Under the pieces are notes generated by a model. It saw only the letters and a program-made list of their open reading frames with translations. It searched no databases and was not told the origin of the DNA. Position numbers and translations under genes: made by a program. A stretch of DNA of 35,664 nt, taken from a virus. Taxonomy: Duplodnaviria > Heunggongvirae > Uroviricota > Caudoviricetes. Location of the stretch: the IMG/VR virus record IMGVR_UViG_3300045988_119994. One strand, 5' to 3'. Below are positions 1 through 14,094 of the stretch, piece by piece (the first letter of the stretch is position 1; every line of letters starts with the position of its first letter).

Positions 1-77
1 ACTTCGAACGTCTGATGGAAGGCGCTAAACTGCTGAAATGTTCAGAGTTTGGTGATGCGATCATCAAGAACATGTAA
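1..77 (+). CDS. icd: isocitrate dehydrogenase, 3' end (partial; 5' part outside window)
   Basis: Frame-3 translation FERLMEGAKLLKCSEFGDAIIKNM* matches the conserved Icd C-terminus as recalled; stop TAA at 75-77; terminator follows. Confidence 0.8.
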   Translation, partial: FERLMEGAKLLKCSEFGDAIIKNM

Positions 78-100
78 TTACTACATGTGTTAAATATTGT

Positions 101-130
101 AACGGGCGTATAACACGCCCGTTGTTTTAT
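101..130 (+). terminator. rho-independent terminator downstream of icd
   Basis: 8-bp stem AACGGGCG / CGCCCGTT (101-108 / 116-123), 7-nt loop, then T-rich GTTTTAT. Confidence 0.6.
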
Positions 131-200
131 GTTAGTACGCTAACGGTTATCAAAATTTTATCAAAATTAGTTATCAAAACCCTTCTGGAAGATTCATGTT

Positions 201-815
201 ATGGACTGCATTTCAAAACAAAAATTCACAATTATTTTAATAGTGGTGTTAATTGCCTTGGGCTGTGCTGCTTATTTTGGAGATGGTGAAGGATATTTTA
301 TAGGTAGCTTTGTGCCTGAATTTACTGGAGTGTGCCTTGAGCTTCTTATTATTTTAAAGGTTTTTGAGGTCTGGCAGCAAAGAGATGAGAAAAGGAAGCT
401 TATTAAGGTTGAAAGACGATTAAGGGAGTTTCTTATTTTCTTTCTGAACCATACGTGCATGGATTTTCCTCCATCCTGCCGTCCAGGGCGTTTTTATGGA
501 ATTGACTATGAGCAAAATCAAAAAGCATTAGAAAAATTAATCAATCATATTGAAGAAAAAGGATTAGCTGAAAATCTTGTTATTCAAGTTCAAATGTATT
601 GTAAGAGTGAATGTCAAATTATAAATAATTTAATCCCAGTTTCTTCTGAGCTTGAAAATGATCACTTTAAATCATGGGTTCGGATTGCCTATTATATGAA
701 TGCCGTTGCTAATGGGCAAGAAAAGGCTAGTGTTGCAATGATTAAAATACTTGAAAATATAAAAAGATTTGATAAGGAATCTCATGATAAAAAACTTTAT
801 GTTGGTGCAAATTAG
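201..815 (+). CDS. hypothetical membrane protein (two N-terminal TM helices plus ~150-aa soluble domain); AT-rich cargo of decayed element
   Basis: 204-aa ORF with ATG at 201; hydrophobic segments at about residues 9-26 and 33-55; visibly AT-rich; no recognisable catalytic motif. Confidence 0.55.
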   Translation: MDCISKQKFTIILIVVLIALGCAAYFGDGEGYFIGSFVPEFTGVCLELLIILKVFEVWQQRDEKRKLIKVERRLREFLIFFLNHTCMDFPPSCRPGRFYGIDYEQNQKALEKLINHIEEKGLAENLVIQVQMYCKSECQIINNLIPVSSELENDHFKSWVRIAYYMNAVANGQEKASVAMIKILENIKRFDKESHDKKLYVGAN

Positions 816-821
816 ATAACA

Positions 822-1083
822 ATAGCTCAGTCTTTCCCTTGGTCATCATAGTGGTGAGCAGTTTGCTACTGGGTCTTATGGCCCAGTAGTTTTCTGGTAT
901 CAACCCCTTGTTCCTTGTAAAGACGCTCAGATAAAGAATTTTGTTCATGAAAAGTTGCTAGAGTTCATGTGCCCTGGTCATTTCCTGCCAAATCCCTCGC
1001 TTTAATGAAATTCACCGTCAACGAATTGGATTTAACCTGTGCACCACGCTCTGTCTGTGAAGTTAAACGGAAAAAATCATGTG
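822..1083 (-). pseudogene. integrase 3' fragment (remnant of an earlier e14-like element)
   Basis: Nucleotide similarity to the 3' ~260 bp of the intact integrase gene (2788-3050) with indels and frame disruptions; no intact ORF; similarity stops near 1083. Confidence 0.7.
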
Positions 1084-1113
1084 TCTAAAACGGATCTATT
1101 TACAGATTGCACT

Positions 1114-1254
1114 AAAGCCGTAGACCTGATTGTTAAAGGTATGGAAGGCGCAATCAACTCCAAGAGCGTAATCTATGACTTCTAACGCTAGATTGAGGTT
1201 ACTAATCTGCTGAAATGTTGAGAGTTTAGTAAATCAATCACAGAAAACATGTAA
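1114..1254 (+). pseudogene. degenerate duplicate of the icd 3' end (icdC-like displaced copy), part of att repeat copy 2
   Basis: Translates as ...[43 protein letters not shown], i.e. Icd C-terminus interrupted by in-frame stops at 1183, 1189 and 1222. Confidence 0.7.
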
Positions 1255-1335
1255 TTCACATTCTGGAATATGTGAGAACGGTAGTCTAGCGGTTCCAGTT
1301 TTTATTATTAGATTTTGAACGGTTATCAAAACAGG
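1114..1335. repeat. att-like direct repeat copy 2 (pseudo-icd 3' end plus AACGGTTATCAAAAC arm at 1318-1332)
   Basis: Same order of elements as copy 1 (icd-like tail, hairpin, GGTTATCAAAA arm), diverged. Confidence 0.55.
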
Positions 1336-1336
1336 T

Positions 1337-1801
1337 TCACTTTGATTCAATTTTGAAACTTTTTTTAACCACTAAAATCATGCAGCTAATCACTTCTGCA
1401 ATGAGGTTAAGAGATAGCACGATAGCAAAAAGTTCTAAAGCAGTAAATAGCTTGCCTTTAGAAGGGATAAATTCGTGCTGAGGATAATTTACTAGTGGTA
1501 TGTCATAATTACGTAAATAGGGAAGGAAGATTGTTACTGCCAGACACATGACCAGTAATTTCAAATCTAATTCTAAACTATCTAAATAGTCCGTAAAGTC
1601 TGTGCTTTTCTCGCCCTTATTAATGACAGCCAAAATTCCGAAGATAACGGAGATACCTGCGGCAATACCTCCAAGTATTGAACCTATTACTCCAGCAGAA
1701 GCCTGCTCAAGTAAGGTATAAATGGTTTTATCAGTCGATGCTAATGCTAAGCACAAAAAGAAGGTAGCTATAGCTTTAATCCAGACAGTTAGATTTTGCA
1801 T
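1337..1801 (-). CDS. small four-TM membrane protein (second gene of cargo operon; candidate effector)
   Basis: 154-aa ORF; four hydrophobic helices (about residues 7-22, 37-60, 81-96, 118-145); start overlaps the upstream gene by 26 nt; AT-rich. Confidence 0.7.
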   Translation of the reverse strand: MQNLTVWIKAIATFFLCLALASTDKTIYTLLEQASAGVIGSILGGIAAGISVIFGILAVINKGEKSTDFTDYLDSLELDLKLLVMCLAVTIFLPYLRNYDIPLVNYPQHEFIPSKGKLFTALELFAIVLSLNLIAEVISCMILVVKKSFKIESK

Positions 1802-2672
1802 TTTTGAACGTATACCTGTTTTGATGTAATGCTATGATCTCTTTAATATCATTTGCTGAGTAGCCATCAAGTTCAATTTCTGATATCTCACCTTCGATCA
1901 GCACGATTTTGGCTGTCTGATTACTGGATACCGTAGTAGATTTTGACTTGAGTGTCTTACGTCCTTTAATCAACCATGACCCGCCACCATCTTTGACCCA
2001 GTCAACAAGAGTCTCAGCCCAATGAGAACCTTTGAGTTTCAAATTGCCATCTTTGTTTTCAAAAATAGTGGTCACAGTATTTGCATTGGTATCTTTTTCA
2101 AGCTTCCGTAAATCATTGGTTAACGCTTGCTTACTGCTTCCGAAGATATTCGGAGTAATCAGCGTAAAGCTGACTTTGTCGATAAATTGAAGCCTATGGT
2201 ATTCTGACCAAAAATCTTCCATTTCAAGACAAGGCTCTATAAATATTCTAAGTCCTAACTGAGCCAAATAGTCGTTATTGGCTAGATCTTCAAACGCTTT
2301 AGCAACTTGTTGCGCATCCTTGAAAACAGCGGTTTTCCTCTCAACCAGTAACACCTGCTCTACTTTGTCCCAAATCCATACGATAGGTGGATAGTTGTCT
2401 ACATCGTACTCTCGAAAGTCTTTATCATGTCCTTTAATCTTTTGCAGCTTTGATATGACTCCAGCCATAACACCATCAGTAGGTTTTATGCTCAATTTCA
2501 GGGTGTAACTAGTTTTCTTATGAACGGAAGGTGTTGATGACGTCATGTGTAAATTTTTTGCAGCGATAACCATAGCATTTTCAAAATGAGAGATATCTTT
2601 CTGAACAGTTCCTTTCGAAAAGAGGTCTGGATCGCGCGGTCTCATTAACACACGTAAGGCATACAACTGCAT
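1776..2672 (-). CDS. hypothetical 298-aa soluble protein (first gene of cargo operon; candidate sensor)
   Basis: ATG at 2672 with AGGAG 7 nt upstream; AT-rich; no HExxH, no GS..DxD nucleotidyltransferase motif and no obvious Walker A; possible D-x8-E-R-K nuclease-like motif is speculative. Confidence 0.7.
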   Translation of the reverse strand: MQLYALRVLMRPRDPDLFSKGTVQKDISHFENAMVIAAKNLHMTSSTPSVHKKTSYTLKLSIKPTDGVMAGVISKLQKIKGHDKDFREYDVDNYPPIVWIWDKVEQVLLVERKTAVFKDAQQVAKAFEDLANNDYLAQLGLRIFIEPCLEMEDFWSEYHRLQFIDKVSFTLITPNIFGSSKQALTNDLRKLEKDTNANTVTTIFENKDGNLKLKGSHWAETLVDWVKDGGGSWLIKGRKTLKSKSTTVSSNQTAKIVLIEGEISEIELDGYSANDIKEIIALHQNRYTFKNAKSNCLD

Positions 2673-2701
2673 AAGAAAACTCCTGTAAACTATTTGGTTT
2701 C

Positions 2702-2776
2702 ATTATTCCATAAAACCAAGCACTTTCAAGAGCTTAATTTTCTTTCAATTCTGTATGCATATACAGTATCATTCAA
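2702..2776 (-). promoter_or_regulatory. candidate sigma70 promoters for the cargo operon (TTGAAT-N17-CAGAAT overlapping the LexA box; TTGAAA-N16-AATAAT downstream)
   Basis: Minus-strand hexamers: -35 at 2771-2776 with -10 at 2748-2753; second pair -35 at 2724-2729 with -10 at 2702-2707. Confidence 0.35.
2751..2766. promoter_or_regulatory. LexA (SOS) box CTGTATGCATATACAG upstream of the cargo operon
   Basis: Exact CTGT-N8-ACAG palindrome with AT-rich centre (6/8 match to ATATATAT); 12 bp downstream of intE stop, 79 bp upstream of the operon start; no other such match found in the intergenic regions checked. Confidence 0.5.
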
Positions 2777-2787
2777 TTTTGTAAAAT

Positions 2788-3915
2788 TCAAACCTTGATT
2801 TTTGCCCATTCCTTACCACGATCATCATGGTATTTAGCTGTCTGGTTAGGCGATTTATGTCCCAGAAGTTTTTGGGTGTCGACGCCCTGAGCTTCGTAAA
2901 GTCGCTCAGATAAAGATCTTTGTTCATGGAATGTGGCGGGCGAACCTTCACCCCAGTCAATGCCTGCTAAATCCCTCGCTTTACTGAAATTCATCGTCAA
3001 TGTATTGGCTTTTACTTGCGCGCCACGTTCAGCCTGTGAAGTAGTACGAAAAAAATGTACAAGGTATGGGCTGACTGCATAGTCACGGCAGCGGGCTACT
3101 ACATCGCGTAAACTCCAGTTAATTGCATTGAGGCGAAGGGAAAGCGGGATGGCGATTTTGCTCCCGGTTTTTTCTTGGATGACGTGAAGATGATCATCCC
3201 AAATATCGCTAAATTTCATACGTGAGATATCACCTAACCGTTGGCCGGTAACCAGTGCTAACAGCATGGCATTCCCCATATAACGATGGCGGGCATCTGC
3301 GATATCAAAGATTTTTTGCCATTCTTCAAGACTTAACCGTTGTCGGGTAATTTTTCTTCTGGGTTGTTTGGTTGCCAGTGCTGGATTATAGCCCGGAGGG
3401 ACTTCCCCATAGTGTTGTGCCTCCTTGAATACATCAATTAGAACGGAGCGGACTACTTGCGCCATCCTCGGTTGCCCGGCAGTGATATACTCGTCAAGTA
3501 ATTGTGCTATATCCCTTACATCAACTGATGAAATTAATTTCATTCCTGCTCGTTCCCTGAGCAAGGATACTGGTTTGGCTTTCTGTTTATAGGTGTTTAG
3601 CTTTATATCGCCACTTTCCAGTCTGTCATCCTGGATTGCTTGATAGCGATCTAACCAGGTTGACGTTGTGATTGCTTTTCCTTTGCTGGTTGCGATCCTG
3701 TCACTGATAGCCAGAATCTGCCGGGTTCTTTGCTCAGCCAGGCGTGAATTTGCCTCAGTGGCAATAGCAATGGCTTCAGCTTCGTTTGTGCCTAAAGAAT
3801 GAAACTTCCCGGTCACTGGATGTTTATATCGCCAATAGACTTTATTTACTTTTCTACTATAAAGCGGATACAAGTTCGGGACTGAAACATTATTTTTACG
3901 TGGTCTGGCTGCCAT
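2788..3915 (-). CDS. intE: tyrosine integrase (lambda-integrase family), e14 IntE-like
   Basis: 375-aa ORF next to the icd-derived att; C-terminal catalytic region with conserved Arg, HxxR (HEQRS) and Tyr (YHDDRG); 5' end overlaps xis by 20 nt; size matches e14 IntE as recalled. Confidence 0.9.
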   Translation of the reverse strand: MAARPRKNNVSVPNLYPLYSRKVNKVYWRYKHPVTGKFHSLGTNEAEAIAIATEANSRLAEQRTRQILAISDRIATSKGKAITTSTWLDRYQAIQDDRLESGDIKLNTYKQKAKPVSLLRERAGMKLISSVDVRDIAQLLDEYITAGQPRMAQVVRSVLIDVFKEAQHYGEVPPGYNPALATKQPRRKITRQRLSLEEWQKIFDIADARHRYMGNAMLLALVTGQRLGDISRMKFSDIWDDHLHVIQEKTGSKIAIPLSLRLNAINWSLRDVVARCRDYAVSPYLVHFFRTTSQAERGAQVKANTLTMNFSKARDLAGIDWGEGSPATFHEQRSLSERLYEAQGVDTQKLLGHKSPNQTAKYHDDRGKEWAKIKV

Positions 3916-4141
3916 TACTTAAAATCCTTTGTAGAATAATAGAATCATTTTTCTTGATGACAGGAGTAACTAATTCCCCAACTAACTCTGCGTCCTCACG
4001 CACTCGCCATAGTCGACCTTGTTTCATTGCCGGTGGACAAAATAAATTCTGCTTAGCATAACGACGCAATGTGGACACGCTTGGAGGATTACTTCTGTAT
4101 TTTTCCGCAGCCCATTCCTCAAGTGTCAGCATTTGAAGCAT
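3896..4141 (-). CDS. xis: excisionase (lambda Xis-like)
   Basis: MLQMLTLEEW...FCPPAMKQGRLWRV resembles lambda Xis (MYLTLQEW...); start chosen at Met6 of the track ORF (GAGG 9 nt upstream) giving 81 aa; alternative starts at 4156 and 4132. Confidence 0.75.
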   Translation of the reverse strand: MLQMLTLEEWAAEKYRSNPPSVSTLRRYAKQNLFCPPAMKQGRLWRVREDAELVGELVTPVIKKNDSIILQRILSNGSQTT

Positions 4142-4184
4142 TTTTGATAACCTCATTTCTTTTGCTACAAAACTATTTCACTAG

Positions 4185-4733
4185 TTAATTTCGCTGTCTG
4201 GATTGTTTATGCATCTTATGCAGCTCTTTAAAGCGTTCCATAAACATCCCGTAGGCATGGCCCGGTGCCAGTGGAATCACGTTGAACATATCTGTTGCCG
4301 GGATGCCTTCCAGTACAGGCCAGAAAGAGCCATCATCAAGCCCGAGATCGCGGCGTTCGGTTGCCAGCATGATGAGATCGGCATATTTCACGGGCGTACT
4401 CATAACCGGGGGTAACCCGTATTTCTCACGGATTACGGCGTCTATTTTTTCTTCCATCTGTTTATAGTCAGGAAGAAGGCGTTTCAGTGGAGCGGGGATG
4501 TCCTGGCAATACACTTCTGTTGCATCATGCATTAACGCTTCAAAAGCAAATTCCTGCGGTACCAGTTGGCTGCAAAGAACCGCATGTTGGGCGACGCTGT
4601 AGAAGTGTGAAAGATGTCCTGCAAAGCGACAGATATTTGAAAGGGAAAACGCGATATCGTTAATAACGATATCGTCTTTATTTATCCTGTCATAATAAAA
4701 ATGCTTCCCAGAAAAAGTTTTAATAAATGACAT
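4185..4733 (-). CDS. yfdR: HD-domain 5'-deoxynucleotidase, YfdR/YfbR-like
   Basis: SVAQHAV...MHDATEVYCQDIPAP motif (His...HD...E...D) typical of YfbR/YfdR family; ATG at 4733 with GGAGAA SD; 182 aa; synteny with YfdQ- and YfdP-like genes. Confidence 0.75.
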   Translation of the reverse strand: MSFIKTFSGKHFYYDRINKDDIVINDIAFSLSNICRFAGHLSHFYSVAQHAVLCSQLVPQEFAFEALMHDATEVYCQDIPAPLKRLLPDYKQMEEKIDAVIREKYGLPPVMSTPVKYADLIMLATERRDLGLDDGSFWPVLEGIPATDMFNVIPLAPGHAYGMFMERFKELHKMHKQSRQRN

Positions 4734-4827
4734 TTTGTTCTCCACGTTATTTGCGCTGCACCGCACTGAATTCTGGTAAAAGGAAGCCCTCACCATCCGG
4801 CGATTATTGAGTTAATTACGTTTCCAT

Positions 4828-4849
4828 AAATGCCCCCGCAGGGGCATTT
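4828..4849. other. perfect 9-bp hairpin AAATGCCCC-CGCA-GGGGCATTT between yfdQ-like and yfdR-like genes
   Basis: Inverted repeat read directly; no clear U-tract on either strand, so terminator function is uncertain. Confidence 0.45.
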
Positions 4850-4861
4850 GCAGTAATCAAA

Positions 4862-5686
4862 TCAGGCGGTGAAAGTACCAATAAAGGTTTCTACTTTGCT
4901 GTCTTTGAATTTCTCAACAAGCAGATCGCGAAATTCGTTAGCCATTTCTTCCTGCACCGCCTCCAGCTGAATAATGCGCAGAACAAGTACAGGACGATCG
5001 CCAGTGATAATGCTGAGGCGTAATTTAAAAGAACGTTCTTTCAGACCTTCAAACGGAACGCATTTAAATTCAAATGCCACTGGCATAATGTCTTTGGTCT
5101 TCGCTTCGACAGACTCCATCAGGGAGCGTTTGCCGCTGAAGTCATTGTCTTCAAAATCAGCAGTCTGGTTCGCTTCAATTGTGATTTTACGGATCGCCGC
5201 AGCCGCTTTGGTTGCCTGAATGGCGTCACCATTAGCATCAAAGCCCACAAGGTTGTCGGCCCAGTCTTCAATCCATTCTGCCAGTGATTTCTGGGAGTTA
5301 CGCTCGCCGTGAACAGACAACAGAGCAGAGAACGGTGCTGTCTTTTTCAGTTTGAGAGTGGCGGTGTTATCTGCGTGGCCTGGTTCATCAATAGTACCCA
5401 GGTTAAGCACACTGACGGCACGCATATTATCAGCATCGATAAAGCAGCGGGTGCCTTCATCTGCAAGATCTTTAGAATAACGGGTAAAGTCATCAATGCT
5501 GGCAGTGGAAAGCGCACCACGGAAACGGAAGCGATTTAAATTAAATTTTTCCAGGTCATGAATGCGGAAATTCTCAGGCAATGCCACAGCATCGGCACCA
5601 ATCTTACTGATAATTTCATTAACACCCTGAGCAGAAATAAGGGCATGGATTTGATTAATTGCGGTTGCGTCTAAGTTCTGAGACAT
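4862..5686 (-). CDS. yfdQ: conserved prophage early protein, YfdQ-like (DUF2303 family as recalled)
   Basis: 274-aa ORF, GAGGA SD upstream of ATG at 5686; size and position between YfdP-like and YfdR-like genes match the CPS-53 yfdP-yfdQ-yfdR arrangement; identification from memory. Confidence 0.65.
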
Positions 5687-5751
5687 AATAAGTCCTCACT
5701 ATATAAAGATATTCAGTGATGAGATAAATAATCAGTTAATTAAAAACGATA

Positions 5752-6114
5752 TTAACGACCTGCTGCGCGGAGTTTTCCGTCAGGTTCACCGGCAAGAGTC
5801 AGTAACTGTCCCTGGTCTTCCTGCAGAATAGTCAGGCGACCACCGCGATTGACATACATCGGCGTTTCGGTGGTGTCTTCTTCGGAAATTTTCCCGCGGT
5901 TAGTCGGGCGAACATATGAGAGTTTGTGTTTGATTTTCACACGGTTCTCATCAAATGGTTCGATTTCCAGGTTGAGTGAGACCTTACCTTTGGTTTTCGT
6001 GTTCATCACACCGGAAGCGACTTCACTGAGAACTGCGCCGATTTTGGTTTCAAATACGCCGCCGTCCAGCTCCCCGATAAATGCCTGCACATCAGTACTG
6101 CGTTCGCTAGCCAT
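5752..6114 (-). CDS. yfdP: conserved prophage early protein, YfdP-like
   Basis: 120-aa ORF from ATG at 6114 with GAGGAG SD (track ORF extends N-terminally through GC-rich sequence, judged non-coding); synteny as above; symbol tentative. Confidence 0.6.
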   Translation of the reverse strand: MASERSTDVQAFIGELDGGVFETKIGAVLSEVASGVMNTKTKGKVSLNLEIEPFDENRVKIKHKLSYVRPTNRGKISEEDTTETPMYVNRGGRLTILQEDQGQLLTLAGEPDGKLRAAGR

Positions 6115-6162
6115 TTTGCTGCTCCTCATCATATCGACCCTGCAAGGCCGATTAGTTTCTCC

Positions 6163-6251
6163 ACAAAACAGAGAAGAACACCTGCGGTGGCAGCCGCCAG
6201 GATGGATTGGGTTATGAGCCCGTCGTCCGGTGATGCTCTTCTCTGTTTTGT
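6163..6251. other. long inverted repeat (17/18 bp arms, 53-nt loop) inside a GC-rich non-coding stretch
   Basis: ACAAAACAGAGAAGAACA at 6163-6180 pairs with TGCTCTTCTCTGTTTTGT at 6234-6251; A-tract before and T-tract after. Confidence 0.5.
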
Positions 6252-6515
6252 AAAAAGGACGGTACCAGCCGGAAGCAAGGGTACAAACTGGTACCGCCAG
6301 GACTACACACAGCATAAAGTTGTGGTGCCGGGTGCCTCCCGGTGCCTGGCGAAGGTTGCACACCAGGCGGGTGGGTATCCACAGAAGGTCGACTGTCAGC
6401 CTCAACCTTAACCCGCGTGCGCTGAGCCGCATTCACCACAACGCTAAGGATTCTCTCTGGTTGAAAATACTTAGCTGTTATGTGCCTGCTTTTAGCCACA
6501 TCAGGCGAGGTGGAC

Positions 6516-6567
6516 CTGGTTATTCCCCAACAACAAGGATTCGGTTAATCTGGTTATCCCCAACAAC
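6516..6567. repeat. two direct repeats CTGGTTAT(T)CCCCAACAAC immediately upstream of the 6583 ORF
   Basis: Copies at 6516-6534 and 6550-6567, 34 bp apart; possible regulator-binding sites. Confidence 0.5.
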
Positions 6568-6582
6568 GCAAAAGGAAAAGAA

Positions 6583-7017
6583 ATGTCCGGTAATATCTAT
6601 ACGCTGTACAAATCCCACTGTGAAAATGTTGGAAAGTATCGGGGCATTGAAATCAGTGGGGTAGTGTCATCAGTCGAAATAAGCAAAGTTGAATCAAGGG
6701 CAACATTACTTACTCTTTTGGACCTTGTCTTACATGAGCACCGGAAGAAATTCGGCACTCCCTATAATCAGTTGAATGGGAAAAAGGCTCTGGTTCACCT
6801 TATTCTGATGAAGCATCACTGGATGCCAAAACAGATTAATGAGATGAAATTTGATGAACTTCTTCTTTCAATTCAGGATGAACTCACACTTGATAAAATA
6901 AGCGTAACCGCCCAGAAATTTTTAGATTATCGAGACTGGAGATCACAAATTCATCACTTTGATGATTTTGACGAAAATGAATGGGATCCTAATTTGTCTG
7001 CACAATATCTAAAGTAA
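6583..7017 (+). CDS. hypothetical protein (immunity-region gene opposing the early-left operon)
   Basis: 144-aa ORF, AGGA SD 7 nt upstream of ATG; AT-richer than flanks; no recognisable motif. Confidence 0.5.
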   Translation: MSGNIYTLYKSHCENVGKYRGIEISGVVSSVEISKVESRATLLTLLDLVLHEHRKKFGTPYNQLNGKKALVHLILMKHHWMPKQINEMKFDELLLSIQDELTLDKISVTAQKFLDYRDWRSQIHHFDDFDENEWDPNLSAQYLK

Positions 7018-7195
7018 CATCCTGTGATAAAACCGTGATTTCCTGATCCAGTTTTTTTAAGGAGTCTATTGTTTCCTGTCGATAAGACAGCACTTCACGA
7101 AGCTGGTTTATAGCTGCCAGCTTCTTTGTCATCCACTCATAAATTTCCTCATCTGTGTAGCCAGGCGCGACGATTTTGGGTTCTGTTTTGTGCAT
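6989..7195 (-). CDS. hypothetical small protein, first gene of the leftward early operon
   Basis: 68-aa ORF from ATG at 7195 with GAGGAG SD; not arginine-rich so not obviously N-like; 3' end overlaps the convergent 6583 ORF by 29 nt. Confidence 0.45.
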   Translation of the reverse strand: MHKTEPKIVAPGYTDEEIYEWMTKKLAAINQLREVLSYRQETIDSLKKLDQEITVLSQDVTLDIVQTN

Positions 7196-7254
7196 TTCAC
7201 ATCTCCTCAAGTTATCAGTTACTTGTTGATGGGGACCAGATTGTTAAAGAGCTA

Positions 7255-7278
7255 AGCGTCCTGTAGGGCGCTTTTTTG
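7255..7278 (+). terminator. candidate rho-independent terminator (plus strand) between the 144-aa gene and cI
   Basis: 7-bp stem (AGCGTCC / GGGCGCT, one G-U), TGTA loop, then TTTTTTGTT. Confidence 0.45.
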
Positions 7279-7443
7279 TTGCTAACGAATCATCCTGGAC
7301 TTCATATGCCCCAGGCGGCTACTTCGTGGGCGTCCTGCCTGTTCGTTTTTGACATTTACTGACTGCTTACGACACATGCACCGTGTTGCAACCAGATTTT
7401 GTTGTAATCCTGTAGTTGGTCTGGAACAAAAGATAAAATTAAA

Positions 7444-8247: not shown

Positions 8248-8310
8248 TTGCGTGATAAGCAAATCAACTTGCGCAAAATAATTGCGTGAAATAACATGCA
8301 TAACGCGCAA
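8248..8310. promoter_or_regulatory. oR-like operator region (strong site TTGCGTGATAAGCAA at 8248-8262; palindrome TTGCGCAA at 8269-8276; weaker site at 8296-8310)
   Basis: Same TTGCG-N5-TGCAA family as oL; lies between divergent cI and cro. Confidence 0.55.
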
Positions 8311-8324
8311 TATTTGGAGGGCGT

Positions 8325-8585
8325 ATGCAATCACCATTACGAAATGTGCGTAAGGCGCATGGTTTCACTTTGCAGCATGTTGCTGCGGGTGTTCAAGTCA
8401 ATCCAGCGACGTTGAGTCGTATTGAGAGGCTGGAGCAGATTCCATCTATCGAGCTTGCAGAACGTTTAGCCAATTTTTTTAAGGGTGAAGTCAGCGAAAT
8501 GCAGATTCTTTATCCGGCACGTTTTCAATCTAGCCAAAACCAGAATGGGTTTAAACCACAGGAACAGGAGGTGAACCGTGGGTAA
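8325..8585 (+). CDS. cro: Cro-like HTH regulator
   Basis: 86-aa ORF divergent from cI; GGAGG SD; HTH in FTLQHVAAGVQVNPATLSRIERLE. Confidence 0.85.
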   Translation: MQSPLRNVRKAHGFTLQHVAAGVQVNPATLSRIERLEQIPSIELAERLANFFKGEVSEMQILYPARFQSSQNQNGFKPQEQEVNRG

Positions 8586-9129
8586 GCATCACTGGAAAGT
8601 AGAAAAACAGCCTGAGTGGTACGTGAAAGCTGTCAGAAAAACTATCGCAGCGTTGCCGGGGGGGTACGCTGAAGCTGCTGACTGGCTGGATGTAACAGAG
8701 AACGCATTATTTAACCGCCTTCGTGCCGATGGCGATCAGATTTTCCCGCTGGGATGGGCAATGGTTTTGCAACGTGCTGGTGGAACTCACTTCATTGCTG
8801 ACGCTGTGGCGCAGTCTGCAAATGGCGTCTTTGTGTCTCTTCCTGATGTCGAGGATGTGGACAACGCCGATATCAACCAACGCCTGCTGGAGGTCATTGA
8901 ACAGATCGGCAGTTATTCAAAACAGATTCGTTCAGCAATTGAAGACGGTGTAGTGGAACCGCATGAGAAGACAGCAATTAACGACGAGCTGTACCTCTCA
9001 ATTTCGAAGCTGCAGGAGCATGCAGCACTGGTCTACAAAATCTTTTGCGTTTCAGAAAGTAGTGACGCCCGCGAGTGTGCAGCTCCGGGCGCCGTGGCGT
9101 GTCGTGACTGTGGAGAAACTAACGCATGA
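8578..9129 (+). CDS. early regulatory protein, YmfL-like
   Basis: 183-aa ORF with GTG start overlapping cro stop, AGGAGG SD; synteny with e14 ymfL as recalled; no motif verified. Confidence 0.6.
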
Positions 9130-9464
9130 ACAGTTTAACAACACACTACCGTCGCTCGCAACTGATTGCGCTTCCTGTACCGGGTGGAAAAGCGAAGGTG
9201 GAGTATTGCTATGCAGTAAATGTACCAGGTGACAGGGAAATTGTAACCCACAGCTTTGCTGAGTGGGCTGTGGGTGATTTCAACCGGCAGAAGGAGACAG
9301 TCCTTTGCGACAAGTTAACCGCTGGTTCAAAGATCACTACGGAGTGCCCGTCAGAGTCATTCGTTGGGAGCCGGAAACACAACGAGTTATCTACCTCCGC
9401 GAAGGCTATGAGCATGAGTGCTTCAGCCCGCTCGAACAGTTTCGTCGTAAATTCAGGGAAATAG
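9126..9464 (+). CDS. ymfM: YmfM-like protein (candidate SOS-associated division inhibitor)
   Basis: 112-aa ORF, ATG overlapping upstream stop (ATGA); size and position match e14 ymfM as recalled; an alternative-frame ORF (9305-9484) overlaps its 3' half. Confidence 0.5.
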
Positions 9465-9473
9465 AGGTCGGTC

Positions 9474-10415
9474 ATGAGCACTAAATTAACCGGCTATGTA
9501 TGGGATGGTTGCGCTGCATCAGGCATGAAATTATCCAGCGTGGCAATTATGGCCCGCCTGGCTGATTTCAGTAATGACGAAGGTGTGTGTTGGCCATCAA
9601 TTGAAACCATTGCCCGTCAGATTGGCGCGGGGATGAGTACCGTCAGGACGGCTATCGCACGGCTGGAAGCAGAAGGCTGGTTAACGCGTAAGGCGCGTCG
9701 CCAGGGTAACCGCAATGCGTCGAATGTTTATCAGCTTAACGTTGCGAAGCTTCAGGCAGCGGCATTTTCTCAACTGTCAGATTCTGACCCGTCAAAATCT
9801 GACGCATCAAAATCTGACCCGTCAAAATTTGATGCGTCGAAATCTGGCAAAAAAGCGGGTTTTCACCCGTCAGAATCTGGCGGGGATCCGTCAGTAAAAT
9901 CAAAACATGATCCGTCAGATAAAAAACCTTCTCGTCCGGACGCTTCGCAACCGGACACGCAGACGGATGAACAGGATTTTTTAACTCGCCATCCTGATGC
10001 GGTTGTATTCAGCCCTAAAAAGCGCCATTGGGGAACGCAGGATGATTTGACCTGCGCACAGTGGCTCTGGAAAAAAATCATCGCCCTGTACGAGCAAGCC
10101 GCCGAATGTGACGGCGAGGTGGTTCGTCCCAAAGAACCGAACTGGACAGCCTGGGCAAACGAAATTCGCCTGATGTGTGTGCAGGATGGTCGTACTCACA
10201 AACAAATCTGCGAGATGTACAGCCGCGTCAGCCGCGATCCGTTCTGGTGCCGTAACGTGCTCAGCCCGTCGAAGTTGCGGGAAAAATGGGATGAGCTTTC
10301 CCTGCGCTTATCACCGTCCGTCAGCACGTACACCGAAAAACGCGAAGACCCGTACTTCAAATCCAGTTACGACAACGTGGACTACAGCCAGATCCCGGCA
10401 GGATTCAGGGGGTGA
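9474..10415 (+). CDS. replication initiation protein (N-terminal winged-helix DNA-binding domain) with internal origin iterons
   Basis: 313-aa ORF; N-terminal VCWPSIETIARQIGAGMSTVRTAIARLEAEGWL resembles phage replication-protein HTH; tandem 15-bp repeats inside the gene. Confidence 0.8.
   Translation: MSTKLTGYVWDGCAASGMKLSSVAIMARLADFSNDEGVCWPSIETIARQIGAGMSTVRTAIARLEAEGWLTRKARRQGNRNASNVYQLNVAKLQAAAFSQLSDSDPSKSDASKSDPSKFDASKSGKKAGFHPSESGGDPSVKSKHDPSDKKPSRPDASQPDTQTDEQDFLTRHPDAVVFSPKKRHWGTQDDLTCAQWLWKKIIALYEQAAECDGEVVRPKEPNWTAWANEIRLMCVQDGRTHKQICEMYSRVSRDPFWCRNVLSPSKLREKWDELSLRLSPSVSTYTEKREDPYFKSSYDNVDYSQIPAGFRG
9786..9924. repeat. iteron array (probable replication origin): four tandem 15-bp repeats GAYSCRTCRAAATYT (9786-9845) plus three related copies (9864-9878, 9885-9900, 9908-9924)
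   Basis: Direct repeats read in sequence; encode the repetitive SDPSK/SDASK peptide; analogous to lambda ori inside gene O. Confidence 0.7.
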
Positions 10416-10417
10416 TC

Positions 10418-10906
10418 ATGAGTCTTTTGAATGAAGTTCAGAAATTCATTGAAGCCCATCCGGGATGTACTTCCGGAGACATTGCGGATGCTTTTGCAGG
10501 TTACTCACGGCAGCGCGTTCTGCAGTCAGCAAGCAAGTTACGTCAGAGTGGGCGTGTGGCTCACCGTTGTGAAGGAGATACACGCAGACATTTCCCGCGC
10601 CTGACTGAGAGAGCGCAGGAACCGGAACCACAACCAGTTCGAGAAACCAGACCTGTGCGCAATTTCTATGTCGGCACTAACGATCCACGGGTGATTTTGT
10701 GCCTGACCCGCCAGGCTGAAGAACTGGAGTCCAGGGGCTTATACCGTCGTGCTGCAACCGTGTGGATGGCGGCATTCCGTGAAAGCCACTCCCAGCCAGA
10801 ACGAAACAATTTTCTGGCGCGTCGTGAGCGGTGCTTACGGAAAAGCAGCAAGCGCGCTGCATCGGGTGAAGAGTGGTATCTGTCAGGGAATTACGTGGGG
10901 GCTTAA
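10418..10906 (+). CDS. hypothetical regulatory protein (N-terminal winged-helix-like; C-terminal part reminiscent of PerC-like regulators)
   Basis: 162-aa ORF from ATG at 10418 just after the rep stop; family assignment from memory, low certainty. Confidence 0.55.
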   Translation: MSLLNEVQKFIEAHPGCTSGDIADAFAGYSRQRVLQSASKLRQSGRVAHRCEGDTRRHFPRLTERAQEPEPQPVRETRPVRNFYVGTNDPRVILCLTRQAEELESRGLYRRAATVWMAAFRESHSQPERNNFLARRERCLRKSSKRAASGEEWYLSGNYVGA

Positions 10907-11559
10907 TGAGTAATAAATATTGCCAGGCGCTGGTGGAACTGCGGAACAAACCAGCCCATGAACTGAAGGAAGTGGGCGATCAGTGGCGCACGCCGGACAA
11001 CATTTTCTGGGGAATTAACACCCTGTTTGGCCCGTTTGTTCTGGATCTGTTTACTGACGGTGATAACGCCAAATGTGCCGCGTATTACACGGCGGAAGAT
11101 AACGCGCTGGCGCATGACTGGTCAGAACGTCTTGCGGAGCTTAAAGGTGCTGCCTTTGGTAATCCCCCATACAGCCGCGCCAGTCAGCATGAGGGACAAT
11201 ACATCACCGGCATGCGTTACATCATGAAACATGCCAGTGCCATGCGTGATAAGGGCGGGCGCTATGTTTTCCTGATCAAAGCTGCCACCAGCGAAGTGTG
11301 GTGGCCGGAAGATGCGGACCATATTGCTTTTATTCGCGGGCGTATTGGTTTTGAACTGCCTGCCTGGTTTATCCCGAAGGATGAGAAGCAGGTGCCGACA
11401 GGCGCTTTCTTCGCTGGTGCTATTGCTGTTTTCGACAAGACCTGGAAGGGACCGGCAATCAGCTACATCGGGCGCGATGAACTTGAGGCATGTGGTGAAG
11501 CCTTTCTGGTGCAGGTTCGCCAGCAGGCGGAAAAACTGGTCAGGGAGATGGCGGCATGA
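10906..11559 (+). CDS. phage DNA N6-adenine methyltransferase (Dam-like, orphan)
   Basis: NPPY catalytic motif (FGNPPYSRA); start overlaps upstream stop (TAATG); no adjacent restriction gene. Confidence 0.8.
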   Translation: MSNKYCQALVELRNKPAHELKEVGDQWRTPDNIFWGINTLFGPFVLDLFTDGDNAKCAAYYTAEDNALAHDWSERLAELKGAAFGNPPYSRASQHEGQYITGMRYIMKHASAMRDKGGRYVFLIKAATSEVWWPEDADHIAFIRGRIGFELPAWFIPKDEKQVPTGAFFAGAIAVFDKTWKGPAISYIGRDELEACGEAFLVQVRQQAEKLVREMAA

Positions 11560-11882
11560 CGACGTTAACTCAATGCCAGCAGCAGGTGCTGGATATGCTG
11601 ATTTCTTACCAGAAAGAGCGTGGCTTTCCGCCAACCAATCAGGAGGTGGCAACCATGCTGGGATACCGTTCAGTGAATGCAGCGGTAGAGCATCTTCGTG
11701 CACTGGAGAAAAAAGGCGTCATCACGATAAAGCGTGGCGTGGCCCGGGGGATAACGCTTCATACCGCGGTGAAGGACGACGACAGCGAGGCGGTCGGGAT
11801 TATCCGCGCACTGCTTGCCAGTGAGGAAAACGCCAGGCTGCGTGCAGCCCACTGGTTACATGAGAGAGGCCTGAAAGTATGA
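11556..11882 (+). CDS. LexA DNA-binding-domain-only protein (no peptidase S24 domain)
   Basis: 108 aa; aligns with the LexA N-terminal winged helix (LT-QQ-VLD...G-PPT..E-A..LG-RS-NAA-EHL-AL-KKGVI...ARGI-L); C-terminal ~40 aa is a short helical tail. Confidence 0.8.
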   Translation: MTTLTQCQQQVLDMLISYQKERGFPPTNQEVATMLGYRSVNAAVEHLRALEKKGVITIKRGVARGITLHTAVKDDDSEAVGIIRALLASEENARLRAAHWLHERGLKV

Positions 11883-12268
11883 AGCTGATCTTGCCTTTCC
11901 CGCCCAGCGTGAACACGTACTGGCGACACCCCAACAAAGGGGCGTTTGCTGGTAAGAGTCTGATAAGCGCGGTGGGGCGAAAATTCCAGAGCGCGGCGTG
12001 CGCAGCAATAGTTGAGCAGTTACGTCGTCTGCCGAAACCAACGTCGGCACCTGCTTCAGTGGAGATCGTGTTGTTTCCTCCGGATAACCGGATCCGCGAT
12101 CTGGACAACTATAACAAGGCGCTGTTTGACGCCCTGACCCACGCGGGTGTGTGGGAAGACGACAGTCAGGTGAAAAGAATGCTGGTGGAGTGGGGACCGG
12201 TTATCCCGGGAGGGAAGGTCGAGATCACTATCAGTAAGTACGAGAAAACGGCGGGTGCAGCCGCCTGA
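11879..12268 (+). CDS. rusA: Holliday junction resolvase RusA
   Basis: 129 aa; LPFPPSVNTYWRH...DLDNYNKALFDALTHAGVWEDDSQV matches RusA catalytic region. Confidence 0.9.
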   Translation: MKLILPFPPSVNTYWRHPNKGAFAGKSLISAVGRKFQSAACAAIVEQLRRLPKPTSAPASVEIVLFPPDNRIRDLDNYNKALFDALTHAGVWEDDSQVKRMLVEWGPVIPGGKVEITISKYEKTAGAAA

Positions 12269-12287
12269 TTAAGAGGAGAAACGAAGT

Positions 12288-13097
12288 ATGAATAATCTGA
12301 TGGTCATTGATGGTATTGAAGTTCGTCGTGATGCTTATGGGCGTTACAGCCTGAACGATCTGCACAGGGCAGCCGGGGGAGAACAAAAAAACCGCCCGAA
12401 ATACTGGCTCTCCAATAAGCAAACCTGTGAATTGATTGAACAACTTTTCACCGAGGGTGGAATTCCGCCTCTGGAACAAAATCAACCAGTTAGCGTCATT
12501 AATGGCGGAAATAACCAGGGGACGTATGTCTGCAAAGAACTGGTGTATGCCTATGCAATGTGGATCAGCCCGTCATTCCATCTGAAGGTGATCCGTACTT
12601 TCGATATGGTAACCAGCGTACCGGAAAAATTATCCGGGCAGGCTGCTGACAAGATGCAGGCTGGAGTGATTCTGCTGGACTTTATGCGCAGGGAGTTAAA
12701 CCTGTCTAACTCTTCAGTGCTTGGGGCCTGTCAGAAACTCCAGGAGGCTGTTGGCTTACCGAATCTGGCACCGCGCTATGCCATTGATGCTCCTGCTGAC
12801 GCGCCTGATGGCTCAAGTCGCCCGACACTGTCGCTGAGTGCACTGCTGAAACAGTATGGTATCCGCCTTACAGCTAATCAGGCATATCACCAGATGGCGA
12901 AGCTGGGGATCGTCGAGCAGCGCGAACGATACAGCCGTACCGCGATTAACAACATCAAAAAATTCTGGTCGCTGACGGCGAAAGGCTGCATGTTCGGCAA
13001 GAACATCACCAGTCCCGCAAATCCGCGCGAGACGCAGCCGCATTTCTTCGAATCCCGATTCCCTGAGCTGTTAAAGTTGCTCGATACCGTTCATTGA
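12288..13097 (+). CDS. KilA-N domain protein
   Basis: 269 aa; N-terminal IDGIEVRRDAYGRYSLNDLHRAAGG...WLSNKQTCELI is a KilA-N signature. Confidence 0.8.
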   Translation: MNNLMVIDGIEVRRDAYGRYSLNDLHRAAGGEQKNRPKYWLSNKQTCELIEQLFTEGGIPPLEQNQPVSVINGGNNQGTYVCKELVYAYAMWISPSFHLKVIRTFDMVTSVPEKLSGQAADKMQAGVILLDFMRRELNLSNSSVLGACQKLQEAVGLPNLAPRYAIDAPADAPDGSSRPTLSLSALLKQYGIRLTANQAYHQMAKLGIVEQRERYSRTAINNIKKFWSLTAKGCMFGKNITSPANPRETQPHFFESRFPELLKLLDTVH

Positions 13098-13098
13098 G

Positions 13099-14094
13099 GT
13101 GACCGTGAGAGCACTACTGACCCCTGAAATAGCCCCGCGTATGGGGATCGTATTGTTCAGACCAGGTTCAGAGCTGATGCCCCTGTTTATGCAGGGGCGT
13201 GTACTGCTGGAGCCTGAGCCGGAACGTTATTCATCTTTCGCCAGTGGTGCCGTTCCCGCGGCATCACAACCGCTGGCGGATGATCCTGCTGTTCGGGCCG
13301 TGTTCCGCAATGAGGCAGTGATCCGTCGTGCTGGTGGCGTAGAATGTCTTGAAAGCTGGTTACTTCGTGAAAAAGGCTGCCAGTGGCCTCATTCCGACTG
13401 GCACAGCGAGAACATGACCACAATGCGACACGCTCCGGGCGCAATCCGTCTGTGCTGGCACTGTGATAACCAGCTGCGCGATCAGTTCACGGAACGGCTG
13501 GAATCAATGGCAACGGATAACTGTGCCCGCTGGGTGTTGTCTGTTGTGCGTCGGGATCTCGGTTTTGATGATAGTCACGTTGTGACAATGCCGGAACTGT
13601 GCTGGTGGCTGATTCGTAATGACCTGGCGGATGCCTTACCGGAAAGTGCAGCCCGTAAGGCACTGAGATTACCAAAGCCTGTTGTGCCGTCTGTCACCCG
13701 GGAAAGTGACCTTGTGCCTTCGGTTCCTGCCACCAGCATCATCCAGGATAAGGCAAAAAAGGTGCTGGCGCTGAAAGTGGATCCGGAGTCGCCGGAGTCT
13801 TTTATGTTACGCCCAAAACGTCGCCGCTGGGTTAATGAAAAGTACACGCGCTGGGTTAAGACACAGCCGTGTGCATGTTGTGGAAAGCCCGCTGATGATC
13901 CCCACCACCTGATAGGCCACGGTCAGGGGGGAATGGGTACAAAAGCGCATGACCTCTTTGTGTTGCCTTTGTGCAGAAAGCATCACGACGAGCTGCATGC
14001 GGATACCGTGGCATTTGAAGAGAAGTATGGCTCCCAGCTGGAGCTGATATTTCGTTTTATCGATCGTGCGCTGGAAATAGGCGTGCTGGCCTGA
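13099..14094 (+). CDS. DUF968 family phage protein (YdfU-like)
   Basis: 331 aa; Cys/His-rich C-terminus (CACCGKP...HHLIGHG...CRKHHDELH); family recalled from prophage Qin; start may be GTG at 13105. Confidence 0.65.
   Translation: MTVRALLTPEIAPRMGIVLFRPGSELMPLFMQGRVLLEPEPERYSSFASGAVPAASQPLADDPAVRAVFRNEAVIRRAGGVECLESWLLREKGCQWPHSDWHSENMTTMRHAPGAIRLCWHCDNQLRDQFTERLESMATDNCARWVLSVVRRDLGFDDSHVVTMPELCWWLIRNDLADALPESAARKALRLPKPVVPSVTRESDLVPSVPATSIIQDKAKKVLALKVDPESPESFMLRPKRRRWVNEKYTRWVKTQPCACCGKPADDPHHLIGHGQGGMGTKAHDLFVLPLCRKHHDELHADTVAFEEKYGSQLELIFRFIDRALEIGVLA

Follow-up and report, generated by a model that had tools for sequence, protein, structure and literature searches.

We examined a 35,664-nucleotide stretch of viral DNA (IMG/VR record IMGVR_UViG_3300045988_119994; hereafter the window), an SfII/SfIV-type lambdoid prophage, and report that positions 9776-9956, inside the linker-coding part of its replication initiator gene rep, are very probably the replication origin of this SfII/SfIV-like prophage. 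An earlier note on this DNA had proposed that an array of short repeats (iterons) embedded in rep marks the likely origin. Four lines of evidence bear this out: selection at the level of the DNA, copies of the motif that lie out of frame, inheritance of the array together with the N-terminal domain (N-domain) of the initiator, and an adjoining A+T-rich segment. The precedent invoked by the note, that lambda-type phages place origin iterons inside the initiator gene, also holds: in lambda and the Shiga toxin (Stx) phages they lie inside O (PMC7466680; lambda annotation), and the origins of P22 and phage L (gene 18) have been inferred from internal repeats, four of about 20 bp in P22 and six of 11 bp in L (PMC8022706).

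The four tandem 15-mers originally quoted are exact (9786-9800, 9801-9815, 9816-9830 and 9831-9845). According to the list of open reading frames (ORFs) and the translation, all copies lie within the rep ORF (9474-10415) and code for SDPSK/SDASK-type units, and Tandem Repeats Finder, applied as the repeat-finder check that had been proposed, recovered 9783-9846 with a period of 15 (4.3 copies, score 86) and also with a period of 30 (2.1 copies, score 100). With up to three mismatches, the consensus 15-mer occurs nine times in the 35.7 kb, where 0.97 occurrences are expected; six of the nine lie in the array, and none of 100 shuffled controls reached nine. A better register is given by a dyad-symmetric core of 11-13 bp, TCARAWTCTGA, which starts at 9777, 9792, 9807, 9822, (9837) and 9870. 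Phased in this way, the array consists of six copies of GTCARAATCTGRC, five at an exact spacing of 15 bp (9776-9848) and the sixth, whose 13-mer is 9869-9881, 33 bp beyond iteron 5. Because each unit is dyad-symmetric, the motif matches the opposite strand too: searched on both strands with at most one mismatch, the core gave 13 matches against 2.8 expected, ten of them in the array (five places on both strands), and the three outside it in 35.7 kb are at chance level. The extent of the array changes accordingly. It had been placed at 9786-9924, yet it starts 10 nt earlier with an extra copy, GTCAGATTCTGAC, and of the three related copies said to follow the tandem units, the one at 9864-9878 is a full site while those at 9885-9894 and 9909-9918 (GATCCGTCAG) are half-sites in the A+T-rich stretch. 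The claim that the repeats define the DNA specificity of the initiator is fair, except that the palindromic core is a likelier recognition unit than the 15-mer in its original phase.

The six sites (9776-9884) occupy nt 303-411 of the 942-nt rep, between the parts coding for the N- and C-terminal domains. This agrees with the oriλ type, in which at least three or four dyad-symmetric repeats lie inside the initiator ORF and between its domains. Aligned as a logo, 249 distinct copies from 80 homologous genes reveal a core of 11 nt, TCARAATCTGA, and after it four weakly constrained nucleotides, the conservation of the core positions being partly inflated by the way in which the copies were selected. 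In two homologs (L162 and L168) a perfect palindrome, CC(C)TCCAGAATCTGGAGG(G), stands in the place of iteron 6. Unit number was followed in a viral-contig scan with the N-domain alignment, which returned only loci with a 100% identical N-domain and was therefore used for this polymorphism and not for divergence; among 80 such IMG/VR loci (L012-L091) the array is shorter by one 15-bp unit in one, longer by one in four and longer by two in one. One IMG/VR locus has A7 for A6 at 9849-9854, a frameshift that truncates Rep at 145 amino acids. Two more exact CCGTCAGA octamers lie upstream of the array (9348-9355 and 9614-9621), within 11-mers that read TGCCCGTCAGA; they were considered as outlying sites and set aside, as the copy inside rep is not conserved synonymously and both are probably due to chance. 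The spacer between iterons 5 and 6 also holds a terminator-like hairpin on the minus strand, CGGGTGAAAACCCG followed by a T-run (9856-9869), which was rejected as a functional terminator because it is not conserved in homologs.

The behaviour of the array as DNA is seen in the way rep varies among relatives. In six phages (the window, phiNP, Kp4871-1, Flotzy, KpF5 and YeP2, with N-domains 81-89% identical to that of the window), amino acids 1-97, the N-domain, have an amino-acid identity of 84% and a synonymous-codon identity of 46%; over the array (amino acids 98-150) the corresponding values are 73% and 85%. A sliding comparison with the two phages that share the C-terminal domain (C-domain) of the window delimits an island at about 9744-9983, where synonymous-codon identity is 0.8-0.93 vs 0.2-0.55 on either side. 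A wider sample came from a contig scan limited to one genome per species, which gave 80 loci with N-domain identities of 52-100% in Citrobacter, Kosakonia, Enterobacter, Kluyvera, Buttiauxella, Yersinia, Rahnella, Providencia, Proteus, Pantoea and other genera; 71 distinct Enterobacterales genes with an N-domain identity of at least 70% were analysed. Where a column has a conserved amino acid, the major codon has an average share of 0.54 in the N-domain (73 columns, none reaching 0.9) and 0.90 in the island (amino acids 98-161; 40 columns, 27 reaching 0.9; Mann-Whitney p=9e-16). By codon position (1/2/3), the N-domain is conserved at 0.87/0.92/0.56 and the island at 0.85/0.87/0.80; in the island the dip at the third position, and with it the signature of protein coding, is gone. 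At several island columns all 71 genes use TCA for serine and GTA for valine, neither of them a preferred codon, while up to six serine codons occur in their N-domains. At the free positions of the unit (nucleotides 1 and 3 of the P/A/T/G codon) the major allele has a frequency of 0.48-0.49, as at neutral sites of the N-domain, and the island is therefore not merely younger or a recent import.

Two more distant relatives, L006 (Stx2_KH16-043) and L161 (Citrobacter sp.), with N-domains 61-63% identical to that of the window, carry a copy of the motif out of frame: GTTTTCACCCGTCAGAATCTGAC in L161 encodes VFTRQNLT where GGTTTTCACCCGTCAGAATCTGGC in the window encodes GFHPSESG, and L006 behaves as L161. 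Synonymous fixation, loss of codon periodicity and the out-of-frame copy all fit repeats that function as DNA independently of the peptide, as in origins of the oriλ type. These comparisons show that a cis-acting DNA element overlaps a tolerant linker. A positive control of the synonymous-site analysis on lambda O was not feasible, as the phage collection offers for its N-domain just close homologs (95% identity or more) and distant ones (53% or less); recovery of lambda's four annotated iterons by the repeat finder, and of lambda's A+T-rich region, served as controls instead.

The array is also tied to one part of the initiator. The core occurs two to seven times in every homolog and in the linker only (337 matches, with one elsewhere), and N-domain plus array are joined to at least four C-domains, namely a lambda-O-type, a Phg_2220_C, an SfV-type and a fourth type, while the ranges of N-domain identity overlap between the C-domain groups. 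In the phage collection, rep of the window matches phiNP over nt 2-479 only and mEp460_4F5 over nt 443-942 only, which places a mosaic joint just right of the island. On this comparative evidence the N-domain and its iterons appear to form a specificity cassette, in the classic lambdoid pattern, to which C-domains are swapped.

Rep itself is a composite of this kind. Amino acids 23-70 match the Pfam winged-helix family HTH_36 (PF13730; E=4e-11), the whole protein matches phrog_391, 'replication initiation O-like' (E=2e-135), and the two domains are connected by a repeat-encoded linker rich in Ser, Asp, Pro and Lys. The C-domain is of the lambda O type (BLASTP E=8e-26, 31% identity over 216 amino acids, with the best block at amino acids 182-277). 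Phage_rep_O (PF04492) was not found in Rep at E<=0.01, whereas the lambda O control matches it at E=6e-36, so that with HTH_36 in place of PF04492 Rep falls outside the lambda O family in the strict sense. A candidate recognition helix, STVRTA (S55-A60), is invariant in every member that keeps the core.

Side by side with the last iteron lies a candidate unwinding element. The 40 bp at 9891-9930 (70% A+T) are the most A+T-rich and the least stable of rep, and when lambda O is analysed in the same way, the segment selected is its established A+T-rich region on the right of iteron 4 (A-rich, 80% A+T); an A+T-rich region directly beside the last iteron, as in the oriλ type, is thus present, although it is weaker than in lambda. 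The two GATC sites in the segment are 24 bp apart, and in 69 of 81 homologs two or more GATC lie no farther than 90 nt from the last iteron. Wherever a homolog has Asp at one of these two sites, the codon is GAT (100%), whereas Asp in the iterons is mostly GAC. It is possible, judging from these sites, that methylation or SeqA is linked to origin firing. Of 86 related loci, 35 have a Dam-like gene in the flank that was retrieved; SfIV, whose rep is 98.6% identical, was reported to lack a methylase (PMC3851460). A candidate IHF site at 9897, read by eye, was discarded because it is not conserved in the family consensus. No promoter-like site was detected in 9100-10600, and Rfam gave no family match. 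DnaA boxes (TTWTNCACA) are absent from the whole window, which together with the 15-bp spacing sets the array apart from plasmid iteron origins of the Rep_3/DnaA type.

The positions of these features are collected in Table 1.

Table 1. Features of the rep region and its right-hand neighbours (positions in the window)
Feature	Position	Strand	Remarks
rep, replication initiator, 313 amino acids, 942 nt	9474-10415	+	ORF list, Pfam, PHROG
Coding region of the N-terminal DNA-binding domain, amino acids 1-97	9474-9764	+	Conserved at the protein level only, ordinary
Nucleotide-level conservation island, proposed whole cis-acting origin	9765-9956		Codon-share, codon-position and sliding-window tests
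Iteron 1, GTCAGATTCTGAC	9776-9788		Perfect 13-bp palindrome
Iteron 2, GTCAAAATCTGAC	9791-9803
Iteron 3, ATCAAAATCTGAC	9806-9818
Iteron 4, GTCAAAATTTGAT	9821-9833
Iteron 5, GTCGAAATCTGGC	9836-9848		Most degenerate copy
Variable spacer between iterons 5 and 6	9849-9865		A6 run and short GC hairpin; low conservation at amino-acid columns 125-129
Iteron 6, CCCGTCAGA-A-TCTGGCGGG	9866-9884		19-bp near-palindrome, 8/9 arm positions; most conserved site of the family
A+T-rich candidate unwinding element, top strand A-rich	9885-9930		Two GATC (9885-9888, 9909-9912) and two half-sites GATCCGTCAG
G+C-rich right flank of the island	9931-9956		Includes 10-bp palindrome CGTCCGGACG (9933-9942); major-codon share 0.81, amino acids 151-165
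Lambda-O-type C-terminal domain	10017-10304	+	BLASTP vs lambda O
YfdN homolog, winged-helix/PerC-like	10412-10906		3' of rep
Dam methylase gene	10873-11559		About 1 kb downstream of the candidate unwinding element

The layout is closest to that of oriλ. There, as in the Stx phages 933W and P27, the middle of the initiator gene, which codes for the linker, contains dyad-symmetric iterons (lambda's four annotated iterons at nt 349-433 of the 900-nt O), an A-rich, A-strand-biased unwinding tract follows immediately to their right, and N-domain and iterons form a specificity cassette joined to a C-domain homologous to that of Rep. The differences lie in the N-domain (Phage_rep_O in lambda, HTH_36 in the window), in the sites (four of 18-19 bp at 20-24 bp, as against six with an 11-13 bp core in 15-bp phasing), in the A+T tract (80% as against 70%, the latter with two conserved GATC) and in the P gene, which lies downstream in lambda and has no counterpart in the window. 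In number and size the repeats of phage L gene 18 come close to the six 11-bp cores described here, but the phage L repeat, TGTCCAACGGA, differs from the core of the window, and both P22 and phage L, unlike the window, encode their own DnaB-type helicase, gp12. The HTH_36 'O-like' initiators of 24B, RothC, SfV and mEp460 share the N-domain family (39-46% identity) and have dyad repeats of their own at the same place in the gene, yet their iteron sequences are different, the spacing is 21-24 bp and not always a multiple of three, and in 24B and RothC a primase-helicase or P gene follows the initiator. The arrangement of initiator-binding repeats beside an A+T-rich, GATC-bearing segment also recalls the logic of plasmid P1 oriR and of oriC. 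Plasmid iteron origins, in contrast, have a Rep_3-type initiator and DnaA boxes, whereas the iterons of the window lie inside the coding sequence of the initiator.

From these features we infer that the Rep N-domain binds the iterons and that replication starts at the array. Dimers of the N-terminal winged-helix domain would occupy the six dyad-symmetric sites (core TCARAWTCTGA), with Rep itself as the presumed binding protein, and the resulting nucleoprotein complex would destabilise the adjacent A-rich, GATC-bearing segment at 9885-9930. Because no P-type loader is encoded, the subsequent route is one that we infer: the lambda-O-type C-domain and/or the conserved C-terminal tail of Rep would bring in the host replicative helicase. 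As for the site contacted by a dimer, the isolated iteron 6 and the longer palindromes of L162 and L168 favour TCAGA-N1-TCTGA over TCTGA-N4-TCAGA as the probable form. A more specific version, which we consider possible though doubtful, is a P-independent variant of the lambdoid origin in which an HTH_36 initiator would act on 11-bp palindromes 1.5 turns apart, on alternating faces of the helix, next to a methylation-sensitive GATC unwinding element, with direct helicase recruitment through a P-x-G-F-R-G peptide common to unrelated C-domains.

The tail in question closes Rep as ...DYSQIPAGFRG (3' end of rep, window 10340-10415). In the form P-x(1-3)-G-F-[RK]-[GST] it is the extreme C-terminus in 39 of 80 family members and lies at most three residues from it in about 12 more, and it spans unrelated C-domain types (tails compared: L001-L006 and L092-L171); another class of tail reads ...WNSIWK.C.QR.... 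In SfV, mEp460 and Stx2a/2c phages, the final 76 nt of rep are 96-97% identical although the remainder of the gene is unrelated. The tail could be a partner-recruiting peptide of initiators without P or a second recombination patch.

Several observations weigh against placing the origin here. The window has no P-type loader, helicase or DnaA box to serve the step after binding. With a spacing of 15 bp, adjacent sites point to roughly opposite sides of the helix, whereas the iterons of lambda and plasmids are about two turns apart, and in an 11-bp palindrome the half-sites are unusually close for a helix-turn-helix dimer. The A+T-rich stretch reaches just 70%, vs 80% in lambda, and ranks no higher than about the 95th percentile of the window. 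The island sits exactly at a mosaic junction, where recombination may add to its uniformity, and 335 of the 337 motif copies in homologs are in one reading frame, as duplication of a peptide repeat in frame would also produce. Finally, the SfIV genome paper lists a replication module and does not mention an origin (PMC3851460).

The array might serve a purpose other than initiation. Plasmid iteron arrays also act in autoregulation and handcuffing, and it can be argued by analogy that the repeats bind Rep, or another DNA-binding protein of the phage (YmfL, which is CII-like, or the winged-helix/PerC-like YfdN homolog, for example), for autoregulation, copy control or as a transcription roadblock, while replication starts elsewhere. 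The modest A+T-rich element would suit such a role, as would the fact that no loader gene or DnaA box ties the site to helicase loading. We nevertheless regard it as unlikely, since the motif is absent from the rest of the 35.7 kb, promoter regions included, and no promoter-like site lies in or beside the array; moreover, the position and order of the elements (iterons, A-rich tract, G+C-rich flank) copy oriλ, and the array travels with the rep N-domain and not with the neighbouring genes, which differ between phages. Less probable still is that the island is mainly a patch of recombination homology, a 'linker sequence' at a module boundary that the swapping of C-domains keeps uniform and that has no binding function. 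Such a patch is suggested by the mosaic joint, immediately to the right of the island, with four or more types of C-domain, and the 3' end of rep is a second conserved patch of this sort. Homology for exchange would, however, leave unexplained why the units are tandem and dyad-symmetric, why 11 core nucleotides are fixed and four spacer nucleotides free in a periodic pattern, why the spacer positions are as diverged as neutral sites, and why there are a conserved pair of GATC and an out-of-frame copy. This account is in any case compatible with an origin at the array, whose conservation would itself supply homology for exchange.

It seems even less credible that the repeats are a low-complexity peptide linker (SDxSK) generated by slippage and selected at most for flexibility, with the DNA repeat as a by-product. 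A period that is a multiple of three, unit numbers that vary by -1, +1 and +2 among near-identical prophages and nearly all copies in one frame are what slippage would leave behind, but under this explanation the amino acids should not be the part that varies and synonymous positions the part that stays constant (TCA for Ser and GTA for Val in all 71 genes, for example), the codon-position periodicity of conservation should not be lost, and the same DNA should not encode a different peptide in L006 and L161. Judged from these sequence patterns, the linker explanation is largely refuted. Constraint from an overlapping ORF, or from a structured RNA or single-stranded DNA, appears just as improbable. 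Both candidate ORFs exist (9715-9897 on the + strand and 9736-9903 on the - strand), and the 201-nt island folds with z=-5.3. The ORFs were rejected because the start codon is not conserved: the ATG at 9715 falls in codons that vary freely in homologs, and the frames are free of stops just because of the repeat. A structured RNA, for its part, is contradicted by the lack of an Rfam match and by the variation in unit number, which would disrupt any specific fold, the strong fold being an automatic result of palindromic repeats that pair with one another.

The wider setting agrees with the assignment of the prophage. The nucleotide identity of rep is 98-99.6% to the Shigella phages SfII and SfIV and to Escherichia phage vB_EcoM-689R6, and the last of these matches 76% of the first 25 kb of the window at 96.8%. 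The early genes run in the order cI, cro-like, YmfL (CII-like), a small ORF, rep, YfdN (PerC-like), Dam, LexA-like, RusA, KilA-N and Q. No P-type/DnaC-type loader, helicase or primase gene was found in the early right operon (window 8300-13100), and the related phages phiNP, Flotzy, KpF5, YeP2 and SfV are likewise without a P-type loader or helicase. The module therefore differs from the lambda O/P module, in which a P-type loader lies directly 3' of the initiator; YfdN, Dam, LexA-like and RusA genes stand there instead.

Some features lie at a distance from rep. By similarity to ON470584.1, the left arm (window about 1-7400) encodes an integrase, an excisionase, a DUF262 protein, an HD-family hydrolase and homologs of YfdP and YfdQ; overexpression of YfdQRST of the K-12 cryptic prophage CPS-53 has been reported to inhibit initiation at oriC (PMC4776307). 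The annotation of vB_EcoM-689R6 and the similarity to ON470584.1 (L172) place the prophage beside the isocitrate dehydrogenase gene of the host. A tandem repeat with a period of 11 (2.8 copies, GTTATCAAAATT; window 146-179) occurs towards the left end, not far from the presumed attachment site. Two E. coli loci (L144, CP178308; L169, CP178306) carry rep codons 1-79 at 99% identity and continue into sequence judged by eye to be terminase-like, which suggests that they may be deleted prophage remnants that lack the origin and all that lies between it and the packaging genes.

In summary, it is well supported that rep contains an ordinary lambda-style layout in a phage group for which a search of open-access text found no description of this particular origin, a result useful for annotation and unsurprising in itself. 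The concept of lambdoid replication is unchanged, although a lambda-O-type C-domain would here have to work without P. Synonymous-site fixation combined with the loss of codon periodicity provides a comparative signature by which origins embedded in genes can be located. For a very common group of prophages in E. coli, Shigella and other Enterobacterales (SfII, SfIV and CPS-53-type relatives), in which one viral-contig scan found more than 590 loci that encode a relative of the Rep N-domain, our data point to a probable origin and to the probable recognition sequence of its initiator, and define a putative specificity cassette of N-domain and iterons that is shuffled among several C-domains.

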